64,000 nt of DNA from a virus. Taxonomy: Duplodnaviria; Caudoviricetes. The stretch's first letter is position 1, and every line of letters starts with the position of its first letter. Both the position numbers and the translations under genes were made by a program. The stretch lies in the IMG/VR virus record IMGVR_UViG_3300032038_000048, positions 22,360 through 86,359 of that record; one strand, 5' to 3'. The notes below the pieces were generated by a model, which worked only from the letters and a program-made list of their open reading frames with translations, made no database searches and was not told the DNA's origin. This document shows positions 1 through 51,658 of the stretch, piece after piece.

Positions 1-3000
1 CTTATTGCCGTTTTCGTCAGTGTAACCAAAGATTTTCTTTCGCAGGTTTTCTATCATTGGTTCGATAAATCCAATTTTCAGGATTTCGCTTACCACACTC
101 TGCATGATGGACTTTGCGGTATCTCCGAAAGCCTTTGCCATATCCTCACCGTTTTCAAACGCGCTGACGAGAGCATCATTTATCTGGTCTGCCCACCCTT
201 TAATGTCTATTGCCCACAACTCCTTTGCAAGATCTTCGGAGAAGAAACGTATCTGGTCGTCAAGTTCGGCTATCTTACTCTTAGTTTCCTCTATGTCTTC
301 GTTGGACTTGTTCTTCATAGACTCCTGTTTATAGAGAATATCCAAATAATCCTGCCTCTCGTTTATCAAATTCTGATATTGTTGAGAGTAGCCGTTTCCC
401 GATGAGTTACGCAAGTAGTAATTCATCATATCTCGCATATCTTTGCTCTGAACCTGTTCGCCAGTCCAAAGGTTTGTTGCGTTCAGTCCTGTATAACCTA
501 GAGCATACGCCCTTCTAAGGTCGCCGCTATCATATCCTAATGTTCTCTCGCGGGATTTCAGGATAAGGGTTGTGTTGGCTTCGATCTTCTGCACATCCTT
601 GCGTAGTTTCTCTATCTCCCTTGCAAGTTGTTTGTCGTGAAGTTGGAATAACCCTGTAGTTAAACCTACTGCCGCTCCTGCCGCCATACCCCAAGGACCA
701 AGGGCGCTTAACGAAGATGCGCCTTGTAATGTGCCACCAAGCAGACCGGCAGCATCGCTCATTGTATTTGCAGCTCCCTCCATACCCATTGATGCAAACA
801 TTTCCGACAACATGCTAAGTCCGCTCTGTAATGTGCTAAAAGCGGTCATAAGGTCTTTTGCTTCATCGGTTAGTTCTACAAGTTGCTTGTTCAACTTTTC
901 GTAATGTTCCGCCTCTTTCTTTGCGTTAGCCTCATCTTCGCTACCCTCTTTGGCGTTCTTTTGTCTTTGTCTTGCTGCTTCCCCACGCGCCTTATAGTAA
1001 TTCATAAGTCCATCATTACCGCCAGCAAGGAACTGACCGAAAGCGCCCCTCTCTCCAAGGAAGCCCGTTGTACTCCACTCCTGACGAGCCTTATTGAGTT
1101 TTTGTTGTTCCTGCACAAATTCATCGGGGCTTATTATGCCTAACTCACGGAGTCTTTTTATTAGTTTTTCAACTGCTTCGGCAGAATTTTCAAATTCTTT
1201 GCGAGACAATGCTATTGCGTTATTATACAAGTTAGCGTAGTCTGCACTCATCTTCATTTTCTGCCAGTCAGCCTGCGTCTGTAGTATATTGTTAGCGTTG
1301 TCAGCCTGCTCTTGTGTAAAGCCGTTTTTACCAACAAGGGCATTATTAGCCTCTTTGTCTTGTCGTAATTTATCGTCTATCTTCTTTATCTCTGCGCTAT
1401 ACGACTTCAACCCTCCGACAACCTTTGCGTAATTTGAAATGTCTGTCTTTAATACGTTTCTTTGTAGGTCGCGCCACTTTTTTAGTGCATCTATAAGACC
1501 TTGCACTTTATCGTGACTTACACCCAATCCGCTTACATACTTCTCTAGTGCTTCATCATCCATATCCATAACCGAAGCAAAGTCTATGTTTGCATCCGAG
1601 AAGGCTTTCGTTAAACTATCGCGTATAGCGTTTGCTGAATTGCGCAAGTCAGGTTCGTTGCCATTCATACCTGCGAGTTGTCCTGCCATAACTTTGTCAC
1701 CAGTACTCTCCCTAACGATGTTATATATCTCCCATCTGCGTATCAGGTCGTCGAGTTGTTTCTTTGTAAACGAGGCAAAGTCCTTCAAGTTCTTCTTTGC
1801 ATCATCGAAGCCAACCTGCGTTATTGCATCTTTCAACTCCTTGATAACATCTAGCATATAACTGTTCTTGTGCCCTTTGGTATTATATAACCCTTCGGCT
1901 TCCGTAAGGAGTCTGCGGAGGCTGGCAGAATACTCTGTTATTCCTTTTTCTGCATCCCATGTAATACCTACCTTTTTTAATATGTCGGCATACTTCTTTT
2001 CAATCTCGGCAAAGGCATCTGCGGGTGAATATTTAAGTTCGTCTTGATATTTCTTGTACCACGAATAAGCATCTTTAACCAGTTTGATTTCTTCACGCAG
2101 TCGCTTTGCTTCCTTGTCTTCGTGAGAGCCCTTACTTCCACTCTTCTTTTTCTTGTCTTTATTGGGGTCTGTTTCGGGATAATTTTCGGCCTTTAGATAC
2201 TTCTCATCCTCCCTCTTAGCATTAAGGCTTTCGTAGAAGGGCATTATTTCGCGTTCAAGAATATTTTGCAGGGTGTTTGCAAAAGAATCGTTTCCTTGCA
2301 CACGCAAGGCAGCAATTCTGTCTTTTATTGTCTTTATTGCACCCTCCATTTGTTTGGCATCCATAATGAACGATGCACTTGCCTTTATGTTAAACTTCAC
2401 CCTAAGCGTCTGCTCTATATGCGATGCTTCAAACTTTAGATACTCTTTCTTTTTCTTTAGATCATCCTGCACAAGTTTTACAAAATCGTGCATGGAGTCT
2501 GTCATTTTTATTTTGGTCTTAACGCTGACATTTGTCTCAAAGATGTCCTTTGCTCGTTTCTGCCAGTCGCTTTTAAGGTCAACCAGGGTCTTACTTGTAT
2601 CAAGACCTTCCTTGAACATTTTCCTCCACGACTCCTTGACAATATCGGGCAGTTTACCACCGAACAGATTTTCTGCCCACGCGATTATGATAGCCGAGTT
2701 TTCTTCAAGTATCTTATTTAATTCATCTCCTGTGGTAGACTCTGTAACCATGCCAGCGGTAAGTGACTGGAATTTCTCTAACGCCATCTTCTTAAACATA
2801 TTCGCTGCTATGTCTGCACCTCCTGAACTCTGCGCTACAACAGAAACGAAATCAAACATTATCTGGTCTATCGTAGCAGGGTCGGAGATTTTTGCCTCTG
2901 AGAAAAACTTCATCATAGCCTCTTGCAGGTAATGTGCCTGCCCGTCGGGGTCATCATTGAAGTAATTAGTAAGCACGCCAATCATTGTCGGGGCAAACTC

Positions 3001-43831: not shown

Positions 43832-45079
43832 ATGGAAGAAAGAAGAAGAATTATTGGAAAACTACTGTATTCCTTCGGAATACCTTACGAGGATTTAAGG
43901 GGAATAGAGGGCGCAACCGTTACTCTGTTTAAGTTCAAACCTCGGATAGGGGTGCGTATTTCAAAGATACGCAACCTAAAAGACGAGTTCGCGGTGGCTC
44001 TCGGCTTGCAGTCTGTACGCATTATTGCACCGATGGCAGACGGAAGCGTTGGTATTGAAGTGCCTAACAAAGAAAGGAAAATACTTCATAGTGAAGATGT
44101 GTTTAACTCGTGGGAGTACATCAATACACCTATGAAACTTCCTCTCGCGCTGGGAAAGACTGTAAAAGGAGAGATATTTATGGCTGACCTTACTGAGATG
44201 CCACACCTGCTTGTAGCAGGTGCCACAGGGCAAGGTAAATCAGTTGGTCTGAATGTTATCATTGCATCGCTGCTTAACAAACTTTCTCCAGAGGAAATGA
44301 GACTTGTCCTCATAGACCCGAAGCAGGTTGAATTTGGGGTTTACTCCGAACTAGAACAGTCTTACCTTGTCACACCTGTTATTACGGAAATGGAAGAAGC
44401 CAGTAGGATATTGAAATCACTGTGCGAGTTGATGGAAGAGCGTTACTCTATGCTCCGCGAGAAGTGCGTCAGAAACATTAGCGAATATAATACTTTGCTA
44501 TCCGTTGAGAAGATGCCGTATATCGTCACCGTCATAGATGAGTATGGCGATCTCGTGATGCAGCGTGGAGGGCGCGAAATAGAATATTCTATCTGCCGTA
44601 TCGCACAGAAAGCGCGTGCAGTTGGTATTCACATGGTGATAGCCACTCAGCGACCTGACACAAAGATTATCACCGGCACAATCAAAGCGAACTTTCCTAC
44701 CCGTATTTCTTTCCGTACCACCACAGGTACTGACAGTCGTGTGGTCTTAGACCAGATGGGAGCAGAGAAGCTTACTGGCAAGGGTGATATGCTCTACTTT
44801 TCTGGAGCAGAAACTACTCGTGTACAGTGCGCCTACACCGACATCTCGGAAACAAAAGGACTGTGTGAGCGTATGCGTACAAAGTACCCCTTTGTTGCTA
44901 AACTGGAGTTGCCTCAAACCTCCATACAAATCCCTGTGTCGCGTGGAGGTGTAAGTCAGGAAGAATGGCAATTCCTGCAAGAAGAGCGACTTCGCATCCT
45001 TAAAAGACATGAAGAAGAATGGAAGCCGAAAATCCTTGCTGCCGAAGCCGAAAGGAAGAAAAGGGAAGGTGGCTGTTAA
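43832..45079 (+). CDS. FtsK/SpoIIIE-family DNA translocase, motor domain only
   Basis: PHLLVAGATGQGKS, IDPKQVE, VIDEYGD, ARAVGIHMVIATQRP, GAEKLTGKGDML; no TM region, no obvious gamma domain. Confidence 0.92.
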   Translation: MEERRRIIGKLLYSFGIPYEDLRGIEGATVTLFKFKPRIGVRISKIRNLKDEFAVALGLQSVRIIAPMADGSVGIEVPNKERKILHSEDVFNSWEYINTPMKLPLALGKTVKGEIFMADLTEMPHLLVAGATGQGKSVGLNVIIASLLNKLSPEEMRLVLIDPKQVEFGVYSELEQSYLVTPVITEMEEASRILKSLCELMEERYSMLREKCVRNISEYNTLLSVEKMPYIVTVIDEYGDLVMQRGGREIEYSICRIAQKARAVGIHMVIATQRPDTKIITGTIKANFPTRISFRTTTGTDSRVVLDQMGAEKLTGKGDMLYFSGAETTRVQCAYTDISETKGLCERMRTKYPFVAKLELPQTSIQIPVSRGGVSQEEWQFLQEERLRILKRHEEEWKPKILAAEAERKKREGGC

Positions 45080-45122
45080 TTCAGTCACCTTCTTCATTTA
45101 ATAACCAAAAAAAACATCAATT

Positions 45123-45974
45123 ATGACAGAAGTATTATCATTTGAACAAGAGTTTACACGCCGTCAGCCTGGACGCGTACAAATCATACGTTTTATGCGA
45201 GAGGCGATTGGTGTGAATGAAGTAGAGTGGTCTGATCTTACGCGTATCAATTTGATAAGCGTAGCAGACTATATTAAAGACCGTGTGTCGGCAAACACAG
45301 CGGTTGTATATTTTGCTGTTCTAAAGGCGTTTCTCGGCACTTTTACGGATGAAGGTATAATCCCTTGCTCCGACCCGAAAAACGCGCTTAAAGCGAAAAA
45401 AGCACCACAACAAAACGTAGCCTTGACCGAAGATGAAATGAACCGTATCGTAGAGTACTACAAAAAAGAATACCGCAATGCCAGTACAGCAGAAAGGAAT
45501 GTGCTGACACTGTTCCTTATTGAGTGTTTCTGCGGTGCGCGTTCATGTGACGTGGAAGTAATTACACCTGCGAACATTACAGGCGGAAGACTGATATATG
45601 TATCAAAAAAGACAAAGGTTCTGGCGCAGGTGCCAGCACACAAAATGCTACCGATGCTCTTAAAAAGGAAACCTCACTGTGAGTATTCAACAATGACAAA
45701 AAACCGCATAATCAAAAGCGTGGCAAAGAAATGTGGAATAACCACACCAATCACGATATATTATCGCGGAAAAATGCAGACAAGGCCGAAGTACGAATAC
45801 TTAGGTACACACACTGCAAGAAGAACCTTTGCAAGCATACTGGCCGCAAAAGGTGTTCCTATAATGGAAATATCACAATATATGGGACATACAAATATTT
45901 CCATGACCGAGCATTACATCAAAGTAGATACCCAGAACGCTTCACCAGAAGCAATGAAGTTTTTTGGAAGATAA
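45123..45974 (+). CDS. Tyrosine recombinase without arm-binding domain (Xer/Cre-like)
   Basis: Full catalytic set: CGARSCD (R), SKKT (K), THTARR (HxxR), MGHTN, EHY. Confidence 0.88.
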   Translation: MTEVLSFEQEFTRRQPGRVQIIRFMREAIGVNEVEWSDLTRINLISVADYIKDRVSANTAVVYFAVLKAFLGTFTDEGIIPCSDPKNALKAKKAPQQNVALTEDEMNRIVEYYKKEYRNASTAERNVLTLFLIECFCGARSCDVEVITPANITGGRLIYVSKKTKVLAQVPAHKMLPMLLKRKPHCEYSTMTKNRIIKSVAKKCGITTPITIYYRGKMQTRPKYEYLGTHTARRTFASILAAKGVPIMEISQYMGHTNISMTEHYIKVDTQNASPEAMKFFGR

Positions 45975-48418: not shown

Positions 48419-48825
48419 GCTGTATATCACCCTTAGTTTTTTATCACCCCACCACCATAAGGGTAATGGGGCAATACTTATGCTCACACTCCCTTAATCA
48501 ACGCAGTCAAAGTAAGATGCAGGTTACGGTTCGTTTGCTTTAACGCTGCGACCTTTACTTGTGCCTCCGCGATGCTCAACTCCTTTTTGTCTATCTGACC
48601 GAGGAAATCACTTAAATACACATGGGCTGGTTTGCCCTGAATCCTGTTAAAATCTGAAAATTTGCTCATCTGTATATCAACTTATTTATAGGTAATTAAC
48701 ATCAGTACTGGCTTGGCGTGTAGTGGCAACCGGCTGTATATCACTCTTATTTGTAATACCATGTGCCCTGCTGCACCGGAAATACTTTGGCTGTATATCA
48801 CCCTTATTTGTAGATGATTAACACC
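48419..48825 (-). CRISPR. Degenerate CRISPR-like array downstream of the dead Cas12f/TnpB-like gene
   Basis: Plus-strand repeat GCTGTATATCACCCTTATTTGTAGATGATTAACACC at 48790-48825; 24-nt partial copy at 48733; degenerate copy at 48669-48703; short partial copy at 48419; intervening uniques of 33 and 29 nt. Confidence 0.7.
48484..48669 (-). CDS. 61-aa hypothetical protein lying between two repeat copies
   Basis: ATG directly abuts the repeat 3' end (GATATACAG ATG). Confidence 0.5.
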   Translation of the reverse strand: MSKFSDFNRIQGKPAHVYLSDFLGQIDKKELSIAEAQVKVAALKQTNRNLHLTLTALIKGV

Positions 48826-48924
48826 AAATTCCGTATAATCGCCTGCGTCATAAATATTTAGGTGATTTATGGAGTGATAAAATCCTCCATTTAAGGCACT
48901 ACAGCGTACCCGTTTATATTGTTT
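48826..48924 (-). ncRNA. Candidate tracrRNA/omegaRNA-like scaffold
   Basis: Between the effector stop and first repeat; GCTGTA..CCTTA and TATCACTC are complementary to the repeat 3' half; internal ATGGAG/CTCCAT hairpin. Confidence 0.5.
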
Positions 48925-50061
48925 TTATTCTTTGTCTACAACAAGTTTAACACCTGCCATCTTACACTTGTAGGCTATCTTCTCCTTAAACCCATAGTAA
49001 CTCCAGTTGCGCAGGACAAACGGCTCGCCGTTCTGGTTGTCTTCTTTGGCTTTGTCTTCACGCCTTGTCTGGTCTAATAGCATCAGTTTGCCACATTTGT
49101 GCTTCACAGCTAAATTTACCAGCATACGACTATAGGTGTGGAGTTTTGTGTCTACATAATTATTCTCCTTGTTGTGCCAGCGTTCTATTGCCTTGCACTT
49201 CGCTTTTCTTCCTTTGCCACCCACCGAATAACGGTTGTTTATCTGGCACCTTCGCACTGCTTCCTGTATCTGACGACGACGGTAGTTAAATTCTTCTTTT
49301 GTGCCGATCTCAAAAACTTTTGGACCACTGTCATACTCTCGCGCCGTTTTTACATCGCAGGTACATACTACTGGGTTCATTACGCCTAAGTAAGCGTAAA
49401 GCGTTTTATCTTCGTTGAGTTTGTTTTCTTGTTTTGGTATATCCACGCAAAGTAGAAAGTATATCTTTTTCCCATCCACCTGAATACTGGAGGTACACAT
49501 TTTATATTCACCACTTACCACTCGCTCAACTATCAGCCGATTGCCGCTCCTATCCCTGCCGAAGCGCATTTGAAAGGGTATATTCATCACCTCAAAGAAA
49601 CAACCTGTGCGCTGCTCCCCATCACCGCCTGTATATTCGGCGAAGCGCAGATTTTTATAAAGCGAAGCCTTGAGAGGTATCGGCATATTGCTTTTGTATG
49701 AGCGTAATGACTTATTCCACATACCTTTTTTACGGTCATCTGCATACATTTTTTGTACGTTTTGCAGAACACTGGGTATCATACCCATATAAGCATTACC
49801 TTTAAAAGCCTCGCTTGCTGCTACATACGGAGCGTTCTGTTTAGTCGCTTTCTGGCCTTTACAGCCAAGGTATTCTATTTTCTCCTTATCTTCGGCACTA
49901 AGGTATGGCATTGTGTTATCTAAGGCAAACAAATGACTAACCGCCATGTTTGCCACTTTTACTGCCACATCTCTATTAGCATAAAGTCTGTCATAGTATG
50001 CCCTACGTTGGTCTTTATCATTCTCACAGATAAAAACCTCAATTTTGCGTGTTATTACCAT
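48925..50061 (-). CDS. Nuclease-dead Cas12f/TnpB-like RNA-guided DNA-binding protein (378 aa)
   Basis: ITRKIEV start, FGRDRSGNR, SSIQVDGKKIYFLLCVDIP, bridge-helix region HTYSRMLVNLA, LRNWSYYGFKEKIAYKC..AG. RuvC-I reads AYLG instead of xDLG, RuvC-II reads LLDQ instead of xEDL, and the protein ends before the Zn ribbon and RuvC-III. Confidence 0.8.
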   Translation of the reverse strand: MVITRKIEVFICENDKDQRRAYYDRLYANRDVAVKVANMAVSHLFALDNTMPYLSAEDKEKIEYLGCKGQKATKQNAPYVAASEAFKGNAYMGMIPSVLQNVQKMYADDRKKGMWNKSLRSYKSNMPIPLKASLYKNLRFAEYTGGDGEQRTGCFFEVMNIPFQMRFGRDRSGNRLIVERVVSGEYKMCTSSIQVDGKKIYFLLCVDIPKQENKLNEDKTLYAYLGVMNPVVCTCDVKTAREYDSGPKVFEIGTKEEFNYRRRQIQEAVRRCQINNRYSVGGKGRKAKCKAIERWHNKENNYVDTKLHTYSRMLVNLAVKHKCGKLMLLDQTRREDKAKEDNQNGEPFVLRNWSYYGFKEKIAYKCKMAGVKLVVDKE

Positions 50062-50094
50062 CGTTATATTTGTTTTTTGTACTACATAAACCCT

Positions 50095-50196
50095 GCTGCA
50101 TACACCCCCAACACTCGTATTATCTACAGGTGCTCAATGGCATACTGCTTGCGGAGCTCGGCTGCATACACCCCCAACACTCGTATTATCTACAGG
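50095..50196 (-). CRISPR. Mini CRISPR array: two identical 36-nt repeats, one 30-nt spacer
   Basis: GCTGCATACACCCCCAACACTCGTATTATCTACAGG at 50095-50130 and 50161-50196; spacer TGCTCAATGGCATACTGCTTGCGGAGCTCG (plus strand). Confidence 0.85.
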
Positions 50197-50276
50197 AGGT
50201 ATTTCATAAGTAGTTGATACTCTTATGTTAAGGCGGTGCAGCCCGCCCGAAAAGTTATATCGTTTCCTTCCATCCT

Positions 50277-50924
50277 TTATTCTCTCCCCCTTAAATCGTC
50301 ACCCTGAAAGCAAATGTCCTTTGTCAGAACACGCAATCTGCTGACGGTGCGTATATCGTATCTCGCTTCAAGTGAAGGTATGTCTGGTATAACATTGCCC
50401 GCTGCATCCCTGGCTATAGTCTTGCGCAGGTTAGTTGTCAGAACAAGCAGTTTATTATGCCGTTCCGCTTCATCCACAAGCTCAGAAAAGTACTTATGTG
50501 TGGTACCATATACCTTTACATTGTCCTCCTGCCCTACATCATCAATAGACAAGAGTTTATATTGACTGATCTCACTGTATTTCTCATTCAATTCGCGAGA
50601 GGTAAAACATGGTATTATTTTCCGAAGGTAATACTCAAAGATTACAGGTATTATCTTCTGCGCAATCAAAGTCTTACCTCTTCCACAACTCCCATACAAA
50701 AGCAAACCTTTACCTTTGTTATCCGAGAGCCACTCTACAACCTCTTCATACTCTGGCTGCCATACGGCACGCTCACCGAGAAAATGATACAAACCGCGCA
50801 TAAGAAGATTTCGGGCATCGGGTATCTTAAAATGTACCGTGCTTTCTCCTGTCGCCCTGCCATCAAATATTCTTTGATGTTCTGTCTGTGCCAGTTCCGT
50901 TAAATTCTTTATCTTTCTTACCAT
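50277..50924 (-). CDS. DnaC/IstB-like AAA+ helicase loader
   Basis: GLLLYGSCGRGKT, LLSIDDVGQE, VLTTNL. Confidence 0.85.
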   Translation of the reverse strand: MVRKIKNLTELAQTEHQRIFDGRATGESTVHFKIPDARNLLMRGLYHFLGERAVWQPEYEEVVEWLSDNKGKGLLLYGSCGRGKTLIAQKIIPVIFEYYLRKIIPCFTSRELNEKYSEISQYKLLSIDDVGQEDNVKVYGTTHKYFSELVDEAERHNKLLVLTTNLRKTIARDAAGNVIPDIPSLEARYDIRTVSRLRVLTKDICFQGDDLRGRE

Positions 50925-51658
50925 TTGTCGTTGTCGTACATATTTGGTTTGTGTTGTAGGTTCATCGCACTCTCGATATTAGAAGTAATACCTTTGCTTT
51001 GCTGACCTCTATCCATGTTATTATTCGCCCATCTTGCCAGTCTGAGATTTGTGTCCCATGTGCGCTGTTGTTCAAAACGCATCCTTGTGTGTGACTTGTT
51101 CGGCTCAGTCCAGTAGTCAAAAAACTCTCTCACCATCGCCTTGCCATACTTATTAACGTATGGAACAAGGGAATTATAGAAACGCTGCTTCCGACCTTTA
51201 ATATCCGCATTACCTGTGCTAGGTGTGTCGCAGGGTGTGTCGGTAGGTGTGTCGCAGGGTGTGTCGGTAGGTGTGTCGCAGACCCCCTCTAACTTATTGT
51301 CACCTTGCAAGTTAGGTGTGTCGCAGGGTGTGTCGCAGGGTGTGTCGGTAGGTGTGTCGGTAGGTGTGTCGGTAGGTGTGTCGGTAGGTGTGTCGGTAGG
51401 TGTGTCGCTAATGGTTGTTTCGTTATTCTCCGACCTCCCTATATACAACCCTTGACCGTCTATCTTTTTTAAGAAACGCCTGACTTTAGATACAGTCCAG
51501 TTCAACTCCAGTGCAAGTGTACGAAGTGTTATTATCGCACTGCGCTGTTTATTATCAGCAAGCATTAAAAGATATAACAATGCACCACGCTCATCGTTGC
51601 TCTTACATACTCTGAGTAGCGTTCTTGGCACTTGTATATATCCTTTTAATGTTGCCAT
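50918..51658 (-). CDS. Replication initiator (lambda O/DnaD-like layout) with internal tandem repeats
   Basis: N-terminal wHTH (LRTLALELNWTVSKVRRFLKK), DTP[T/C] repeats, C-terminal EFFDYWTE...QQRTWD...RLARW; upstream of the loader. Confidence 0.8.
   Translation of the reverse strand: MATLKGYIQVPRTLLRVCKSNDERGALLYLLMLADNKQRSAIITLRTLALELNWTVSKVRRFLKKIDGQGLYIGRSENNETTISDTPTDTPTDTPTDTPTDTPTDTPCDTPCDTPNLQGDNKLEGVCDTPTDTPCDTPTDTPCDTPSTGNADIKGRKQRFYNSLVPYVNKYGKAMVREFFDYWTEPNKSHTRMRFEQQRTWDTNLRLARWANNNMDRGQQSKGITSNIESAMNLQHKPNMYDNDKW
51222..51410 (+). repeat. 12-bp tandem repeats GGTGTGTCG(CAG/GTA), 5 + 8 copies; iteron-like
   Basis: 51222-51281 (5 units) and 51315-51410 (8 units). Confidence 0.9.

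Follow-up and report, generated by a model that had tools for sequence, protein, structure and literature searches.

A one-spacer mini-array and its covarying scaffold RNA beside the gene of a phage nuclease-dead Cas12f

Described systems related to the locus

The closest solved relative of the effector at this locus is the protein of PDB entry 9n9c, the nuclease-deactivated Cas12f (dCas12f) of Hoffmann, Wiegand et al. (Nature 2026, PMC13472631), which uses a single guide RNA with a 14-16-nt guide at its 3' end and recruits sigma-E to start transcription. In such dCas12f-sigma-E systems, rpoE lies in the same operon and its product has a special C-terminal domain, the single guide is fixed and 14 nt long, and susCD-type genes are activated (PMC13472631); for the subtype as a whole, a fixed guide of 14-16 nt, a 5'-G TAM and a target upstream of the regulated gene were reported (Hoffmann et al. 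2026). A separate dCas12f cluster adjoins CRISPR arrays, is found without rpoE and may act by repression (PMC13472631, Extended Data Fig. 1a,b). In huge phages, a "dCas14" was described as a single case of a type V-F effector that misses a catalytic residue, the associated spacer being directed at the gene for a host tRNA synthetase (Al-Shayeb et al., Nature 2020, PMC7162821), and the lack of adaptation genes is common for phage-borne arrays (PMC7162821).

The locus considered here belongs to a phage of Bacteroidota-type bacteria and lies in a stretch of 64,000 nucleotides (the window), which is contained in an IMG/VR phage record of 86,359 nt. What it contains is a genuine guide array of a phage dCas12f, with one spacer and a recent change, a kind of system that has already been described. 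Weighing the comparisons below, it is best placed with the cluster of dCas12f that Hoffmann et al. describe beside arrays, with which it shares a dead and truncated Cas12f, arrays, a covarying noncoding RNA upstream of the array, the absence of a sigma-E gene and a proposed role in repression (PMC13472631). The example of that cluster comes from a Chitinophagaceae MAG, with guides sometimes at efflux-pump promoters, whereas the present locus is carried by a phage (PMC13472631); unlike the cluster, it also has at least two flanking modules with matched scaffold/repeat pairs, a companion protein of 61-92 aa and a rapid turnover of its spacers.

The dCas12f-sigma-E systems provide the closest solved protein (E 5e-57, full length), with the same dead active site (PMC13472631; 10.1101/2025.06.10.658880), and in their guide RNA, too, the guide lies 3' of a compact scaffold of several stems. 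Here, in contrast, no sigma factor is adjacent, the guide is part of a repeat-spacer-repeat array, and the 30-nt spacers are variable. The "dCas14" and other compact loci of huge phages resemble the present one in the type V-F effector without a catalytic residue, in the compact arrays, in the absence of Cas1, Cas2 and Cas4 from the phage and in the suggested repression of the target (PMC7162821), but differ from the case at hand, in which the record spans 86 kb, at least 120 protein clusters share 76% identity or more, and the scaffold architecture is defined. In the literature searched, no paper was found on this phage family, its paired scaffold/array modules or the companion gene.

In the tracrRNA:crRNA of Cas12f1 and in the omega-RNA of TnpB, a portion of the scaffold is paired to the tag that derives from the repeat and lies just 5' of the guide, and this pairing includes a pseudoknot-type contact. 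The RNA described below likewise has a scaffold-tag pairing just 5' of the guide and serves an effector of the same lineage; unlike those RNAs, its anti-repeat is 6-9 nt long and is complemented by a 6-nt loop contact, scaffold and first repeat are joined in cis, and the effector cannot cut. A path from single guide to dual guide and back has been proposed for these systems (PMC13472631). RNA-guided DNA binders that block transcription instead of cutting are also found in Cas12m (type V-M; PMC10442227) and in TldR, a group of TnpB-like nuclease-dead repressors, some of them phage-encoded, that have one fixed omega-RNA guide and no array. Both Cas12m and TldR belong to protein clades different from that of the present effector.

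The mini-array

A repeat search of the window returned two copies of the 36-nt repeat GCTGCATACACCCCCAACACTCGTATTATCTACAGG, at positions 50095-50130 and 50161-50196, that are 100% identical and whose starts are 66 nt apart; just these two copies are present in the whole phage record. They enclose the 30-nt spacer CGAGCTCCGCAAGCAGTATGCCATTGAGCA (50131-50160), which occurs once in the window at up to three mismatches (0 chance matches expected) and once in the whole 86-kb record, so that the arrangement given in the preliminary description, two identical repeats around a 30-nt spacer, is confirmed. Like all the genes in this part of the window, the array reads on the minus strand, in the order repeat copy 1 (50196 to 50161), spacer (50160 to 50131) and terminal repeat copy 2 (50130 to 50095), followed by 33 nt and by the ATG of the neighbouring gene at 50061. 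This 33-nt gap (50062-50094) is most likely an mRNA leader. Its reading as a conserved fixed guide was dropped, as the stretch is unconserved in other members of the family and has no second site.

The repeat unit measures 65-67 nt in 47 of the 68 intervals found in relatives, and 36 plus 30 nt is the canonical unit of the family. This family-wide spacing, together with the exact identity over 36 nt and the conserved context, excludes a chance origin. The locus thus shows what is usually asked of a CRISPR array, namely at least two near-identical repeats of 23-55 nt around a unique spacer of similar length (here 2 x 36 nt and 30 nt), an adjoining cognate cas effector gene, which starts 33 nt past repeat 2, and a polarised variation of the spacers among close relatives; the adaptation genes cas1 and cas2 are absent from the locus.

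The mini-array was initially presented as the second of two arrays, each with its own repeat family, and this distinction is genuine. Compared with the first downstream repeat (48790-48825), the identity is 18/36, exactly the figure given earlier, and the last 15 bases agree at 10 positions. The shared 3' end noted at the outset is real as well and is the part of the repeat that pairs with the scaffold. The 3' 20-mer of the repeat had no other occurrence in IMG/VR or in the JGI metagenomes. Between array and gene, a sigma-70-type scan, by which Bacteroidota promoters are not modelled, detected neither promoter nor terminator.

The effector gene

The gene that follows the array (48925-50061, minus strand) encodes a protein of 378 aa whose full-length alignment to PDB 9n9c, annotated as "Nuclease-deactivated Cas12f", has an E value of 5.1e-57; alignments to active Cas12f and TnpB chains are weaker. 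Alignment to active Cas12f places Tyr224 at the RuvC-I Asp and Leu328 at the RuvC-II Glu, and among 13 homologs Leu225 and Leu328, both residues of the substituting regions, are invariant. The protein ends at residue 378, ahead of the part of active Cas12f that contains the Zn-ribbon and RuvC-III, while the aligned active chains of 506-508 aa run about 90 residues further. Both marks of dCas12f given by Hoffmann et al. (2026) are present, that is, an inactivated RuvC combined with a C-terminal truncation, and a structured scaffold RNA with a 3' guide encoded beside the gene. Profile searches gave no Pfam match for the 378-aa ORF and a score below the cut-off for NCBIfam guided_TnpB.

The effector is therefore a dead Cas12f of the type V-F lineage, and the likeness to type VI-B or II-C arrays that had been drawn from the geometry of the repeats did not hold, since a neighbouring cas13b or cas9 gene, the feature expected of such arrays, is absent. 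No other ORF longer than 415 aa lies within 6 kb of the array, which leaves dCas12f as the sole neighbouring effector.

The scaffold RNA

Directly 5' of repeat copy 1 is a scaffold element, scaffold A (50249 to 50197, minus strand), which recurs right after the stop codon of dcas12f (48912 to 48856) and was present beside every homologous gene fetched. Its first hairpin, P1 (50232-50247), consists of GGCGG, the loop GCUGCA and CCGCC, and is supported by covariation across 32 scaffolds. The second, P2 (CAUAAGAG ... CU.CUUAUG, with a bulged A; 50205-50227), is supported by both covariation and the fold of the single sequence, and seven of its eight pairs have changed on both sides. An anti-repeat tail, ATACCTCC (50195-50202), comes next, and its final two bases are the first two of repeat copy 1.

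Alignment of 32 scaffold copies supported the two hairpins, with 98.6% of the cells paired and 11 of 13 pairs changed on both sides; the covariation score was 0.73, compared with 0.17 after shuffling and no more than 0.09 in slid controls. The covariance model built from this alignment detected exactly two copies in the 64-kb window, scaffold A being matched at 50192-50249 with an E value of 3e-17, and, over all the sequences searched, 72 copies, many of which had not been used in building the model. All 72 stand beside dcas12f and on its strand. Rfam yielded no match, either at the gathering threshold for the whole window or at E<=1 for the locus.

Pairing between scaffold and repeat

Two contacts connect the scaffold to the repeat. 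In the first, the 6-9 nt past hairpin P2 are complementary to repeat bases that end 7 nt before the guide. Over 38 non-redundant modules, the anchored tail helix has a mean length of 5.4 bp when a module's own repeat is used and of 2.0 bp when repeats are taken from other modules (permutation p<1e-4), and inside one locus the values are 5.5 bp for the own repeat versus 2.7 bp for that of the other module. In module A, as the scaffold and mini-array described here will be called, ATACCTCC forms 8 bp with GGGGGTGT at 50168-50175 (scored on L008_1003, whose tail and handle are identical); in module B, the second scaffold and its array, ATCACCT forms 7 bp with GGGTGAT.

In the second contact, the loop of hairpin P1, GCUGYA, is complementary to the final six bases of the repeat, URCAGC, and the pairing is 6/6 in all 28 modules tabulated. 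The variable position is C:G or T:A, sometimes a T:G wobble and never C:A, and compensatory cases exist in which GTTGCA faces TGCAAC and GTTGTA faces TACAAC. The loop of module A, GCUGCA (50237-50242), is complementary to the last six nucleotides of each repeat copy and pairs with UGCAGC (50161-50166 in copy 1), and that of module B, GCUGUA, pairs with UACAGC. Every base required for the tail helix and the pseudoknot is intact in module A. Further support for the two contacts was provided by the energy fold of window positions 50145-50249, which recovers hairpin P2, the tail helix (positions 48-55 paired with 75-82 in the minimum-free-energy structure) and the loop-repeat pairing.

On account of these two contacts, scaffold and repeat copy 1 are predicted to form a guide-RNA handle of about 89 nt before the spacer, which would amount to a natural single guide RNA. 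Its size is similar to that of the published dCas12f guide RNA, in which the 14-nt guide begins near residue 76 (PMC13472631). The same contacts explain why the two repeat families are alike only at their 3' ends, because that end is where the repeat meets the scaffold, of which each family has a matching copy.

Relatives of the locus and turnover of the spacers

The dCas12f family comprises 830 proteins at E<=1e-20, and identity is 76% or higher in each of its best 120 clusters. Logan and ENA assemblies are the source of most members, two of the fetched loci are labelled gut metagenome, and GenBank phages contained no close homolog. The usual layout is scaffold and array, dcas12f, scaffold and array, sometimes with more modules. 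In one relative, L013, at least six consecutive scaffold-array modules are located around and after dcas12f (L013:3340-6024), each with its own match of tail, loop and repeat.

The preliminary description had read a recent event into the identity of the two repeats, and held that the absence of repeat relatives from CRISPR loci, or of spacer variation among related phages, would speak against its interpretation. As it turned out, relatives of the repeat sit in CRISPR-like arrays, the spacers do vary, and a recent event is borne out by a near-identical phage that differs by exactly one repeat and one spacer. In the loci L008 and L009, dCas12f is 99% identical and the flanks are 95-100% identical to the window, the 33-nt gap of L008 being identical, and both have exactly one repeat and one spacer (66 nt) fewer. 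Their single repeat, the counterpart of repeat copy 2, departs from that of the window at 3 of 36 positions, none of which takes part in the pairing. In the downstream array B, the two loci have kept the repeats and replaced both spacers. The spacer of the window has recently been gained at the scaffold-proximal end, unless the sister phage has lost it.

The same polarity is evident elsewhere. Among a group of gut phages that are 99.4-100% identical over 1.45 kb of the locus, the spacer positions hold 13 distinct sequences, one of which is the constant stretch past the last repeat; a distal spacer is common to most of these phages, and the variable spacers are scaffold-proximal. Scaffold-proximal variation with the same polarity was found in L033-L036. 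This is the pattern of leader-end acquisition, although the phages are without Cas1: a Cas1 domain was found in none of six phage records, namely that of the window and those of five relatives, three of which are at least 90% complete.

Some units of the relatives (L013:4764-4799, L013:4966-5001 and L005:4412-4444) keep only the docking end of the repeat, about 13 nt, and have spacers of 14-17 nt. There is a hint here of agreement with the short effective guides reported for dCas12f.

Search for targets

A protospacer was looked for, as the preliminary description had proposed, and none was found in the collections searched. The phage's own 86-kb record was scanned with the full-length spacer and with 16-mers and 20-mers allowing mismatches, IMG/VR with an exact 20-mer as well as with a pattern in which the third base of each codon was left open, GenBank phages by blastn, and the JGI metagenomes and PLSDB plasmids were covered too, all with negative results. 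The single match among GTDB species genomes, in a Pseudomonadota MAG, is at chance level, with agreement at three of nine free positions.

The arrays of the relatives gave a similar outcome. Against GenBank phages, their only match (28 nt, E 0.1, in a Paenibacillus phage) was discarded, and two spacers of the gut group matched only their own arrays in IMG/VR. Successive sets of 77, 96 and 106 guide candidates were compared with the genomes of six phages of the family, up to 535 kb in all, and even the largest gave no excess over shuffled spacers. The fixed guide of L005 and L006 has no second site in a complete 73-kb genome. Two individual matches are within chance expectation: the first spacer of array B in the window agrees with G001 at 15 of 16 seed-anchored positions, and the first guide of module A in L012 agrees at 14 of 14 positions, from its first base, with window positions 1032-1045, within an ORF of 2490 aa, a match for which about 0.1 is expected by chance, though it stands at the position expected of a real seed. 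The target of the spacer may be a host or an element missing from these collections, or only the first 14-16 nt may matter.

Proposed function and alternative explanations

The reading that we regard as quite probable is that the mini-array is the guide-RNA module of the phage-encoded nuclease-dead Cas12f and that it serves for DNA binding without cutting. Module A would be read on the minus strand, and its transcript would probably include dcas12f, which begins 33 nt later; co-transcription is proposed because the gene upstream stops 27 nt short of the scaffold and no terminator separates array and gene. The 55-nt scaffold, made of two hairpins and the 8-nt tail, would be fused to repeat copy 1; the tail would pair with GGGGGUGU in the repeat, and the loop of the first hairpin with UGCAGC, forming a pseudoknot. 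By docking onto the repeat end in cis, the scaffold would complete the handle, from which the 30-nt spacer guide would extend. Repeat copy 2 would be the terminal repeat that closes the unit; it has no scaffold of its own, and the sequence after it may be no guide. For the later repeats of longer arrays, the scaffold would fold back onto them or act in trans.

A dimer of dCas12f would then bind the guide RNA, and the complex would bind matching DNA, leave it uncut and block its transcription, the most likely outcome being the silencing of a gene that belongs to the host or to a competing mobile element. Repression is proposed over activation for one reason, namely that no sigma factor is linked. 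A further-reaching proposal, which we put forward tentatively and hold to be rather doubtful, is that of a nuclease-free adaptive CRISPR, in which phages devoid of Cas1 and Cas2 would gain scaffold-proximal spacers through a host integrase or another route, use private pairing codes, and silence host defence or rival integrated elements by means of dCas12f and the 61-92-aa companion, with the host left alive.

Of the alternatives, the one that survives best is an RNA-guided transcription activator, in which the loaded dCas12f would recruit a host ECF sigma factor and RNA polymerase and so switch its target on. The closest solved relative, 9n9c, is indeed the activator dCas12f of Flagellimonas (PMC13472631; 10.1101/2025.06.10.658880), and Bacteroidota hosts encode many ECF sigma factors (PMC13472631). 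However, the operonic rpoE that marks the dCas12f-sigma-E subtype is missing here: no sigma factor lies beside dcas12f, the phage record of the window contains no Sigma70_r2 or Sigma70_r4_2 domain, and among five related records a sigma r4 match exceeds the cut-off in just one, at a distance of about 68 kb from dcas12f. Moreover, the guides of such systems are fixed and conserved, whereas the spacers here turn over among loci that are 99.4-100% identical, and repression is the role proposed for the published cluster that adjoins arrays and lacks rpoE (PMC13472631). We therefore consider activation unlikely.

Less probable still is that the unit is a decaying or neutral relic, a by-product of recombination between arrays whose spacer has no function at present. 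The failure to find a target would agree with this, as would the visible degeneration of array B in the same locus and the 3/36 differences between the repeat and that of L008, against 0-5% in the flanks, which would fit an import by recombination. Against it, the two repeats are identical, none of the bases of the tail helix and pseudoknot has been lost, and the three differences from the L008 repeat spare the paired part; in addition, the 36 + 30 geometry is the canonical one, and the effector is highly conserved, with a mean column identity of 83% among 13 homologs.

Loading by the phage effector was one of three options raised in the preliminary description and stands as the most likely, while the other two, in which phage repeats would mimic a host repeat and soak up or re-program a host effector in the manner of Racr RNAs and viral sgRNAs, are very unlikely, for even though phages are documented to carry solitary repeats, and viruses to carry sgRNAs, by which host Cas proteins are subverted (10.64898/2026.06.01.729453), a decoy would be expected in a phage without a cognate effector, and here the effector gene is 33 nt from the array, each repeat family is compensatorily matched to the phage scaffold next to it, with a second, differently matched pair across the same gene, and the repeat 3' 20-mer occurs nowhere else in the IMG/VR and JGI metagenome collections.

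If the reading as a guide-RNA module of dCas12f holds, ordinary-sized Bacteroidota phages of the gut and rumen carry a non-cutting, programmable DNA-binding system and keep re-programming it, the guides differing among phages that are 99.4-100% identical over the locus despite the absence of a spacer-integration gene from the phage. The value of the locus lies in a clean gain/loss pair for one spacer unit (window versus L008) and in the pairing code. This code, in which a tail helix of 8 bp is combined with a loop contact of 6 bp, explains how one protein can serve several repeat families per locus, and tools based on dCas12f could draw on it when very small, orthogonal guide RNAs are designed. 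The targets would reveal whether the phages silence host defences, resident rivals or host metabolism.

The second module, the companion gene and the neighbourhood

Scaffold B (48856-48912, minus strand), the second two-hairpin copy, has the tail/repeat pair ATCACCT/GGGTGAT and the loop/repeat pair GCUGUA/UACAGC and would serve the downstream repeat family. This family makes up array B (48670-48825, minus strand), which consists of three degenerate repeats ending in GTGATATACAG(C) and of two spacers. The third repeat ends with GATATACAG (48670-48682, minus strand) and is followed immediately by the ATG of a 61-aa gene, so that the final "spacer position" of the array is a protein-coding gene.

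The 61-aa product (48484-48669, minus strand) is a conserved companion protein with homologs in 37 of 42 dcas12f loci; the family ranges from 61 to 92 aa and has the motif LKQMNNRSRL..DAAK.ELK. In relatives, the gene is directly 5' of a scaffold, whereas in the window it is followed by an orphan handle. Searches of Pfam, PHROG and PDB gave no match for the protein, which is probably part of the system as a third component.

The orphan handle (48419-48454, minus strand) is a fourth repeat-like element, ending in TAAGGGTGATATACAGC, which has a local complementary stretch and no preceding scaffold and stands 4 nt ahead of the ATG of a DNA methyltransferase gene that matches phrog_799. In L008, a gene for a 229-aa T5orf172/MUG113 protein, absent from the window, is inserted exactly at the orphan handle (L008:2758-3447); it is possibly a homing endonuclease.

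The other neighbours are phage replication and recombination genes, which code for RecT, a YqaJ exonuclease, DnaD-like and DnaC-like loaders and a DUF4494 protein, in addition to the methyltransferase. Just past this replication module, genes for an FtsK/SpoIIIE-family translocase and a tyrosine recombinase occupy window positions 43832-45974 on the plus strand, which suggests a temperate or integrative lifestyle. Finally, a 12-nt unit (GGTGTGTCG followed by CAG or GTA, plus strand) is repeated in tandem at least 13 times at window positions 51198-51431, within the 246-aa DnaD-like ORF (50918-51658, minus strand), implying a repeated tetrapeptide or iteron-like sites.
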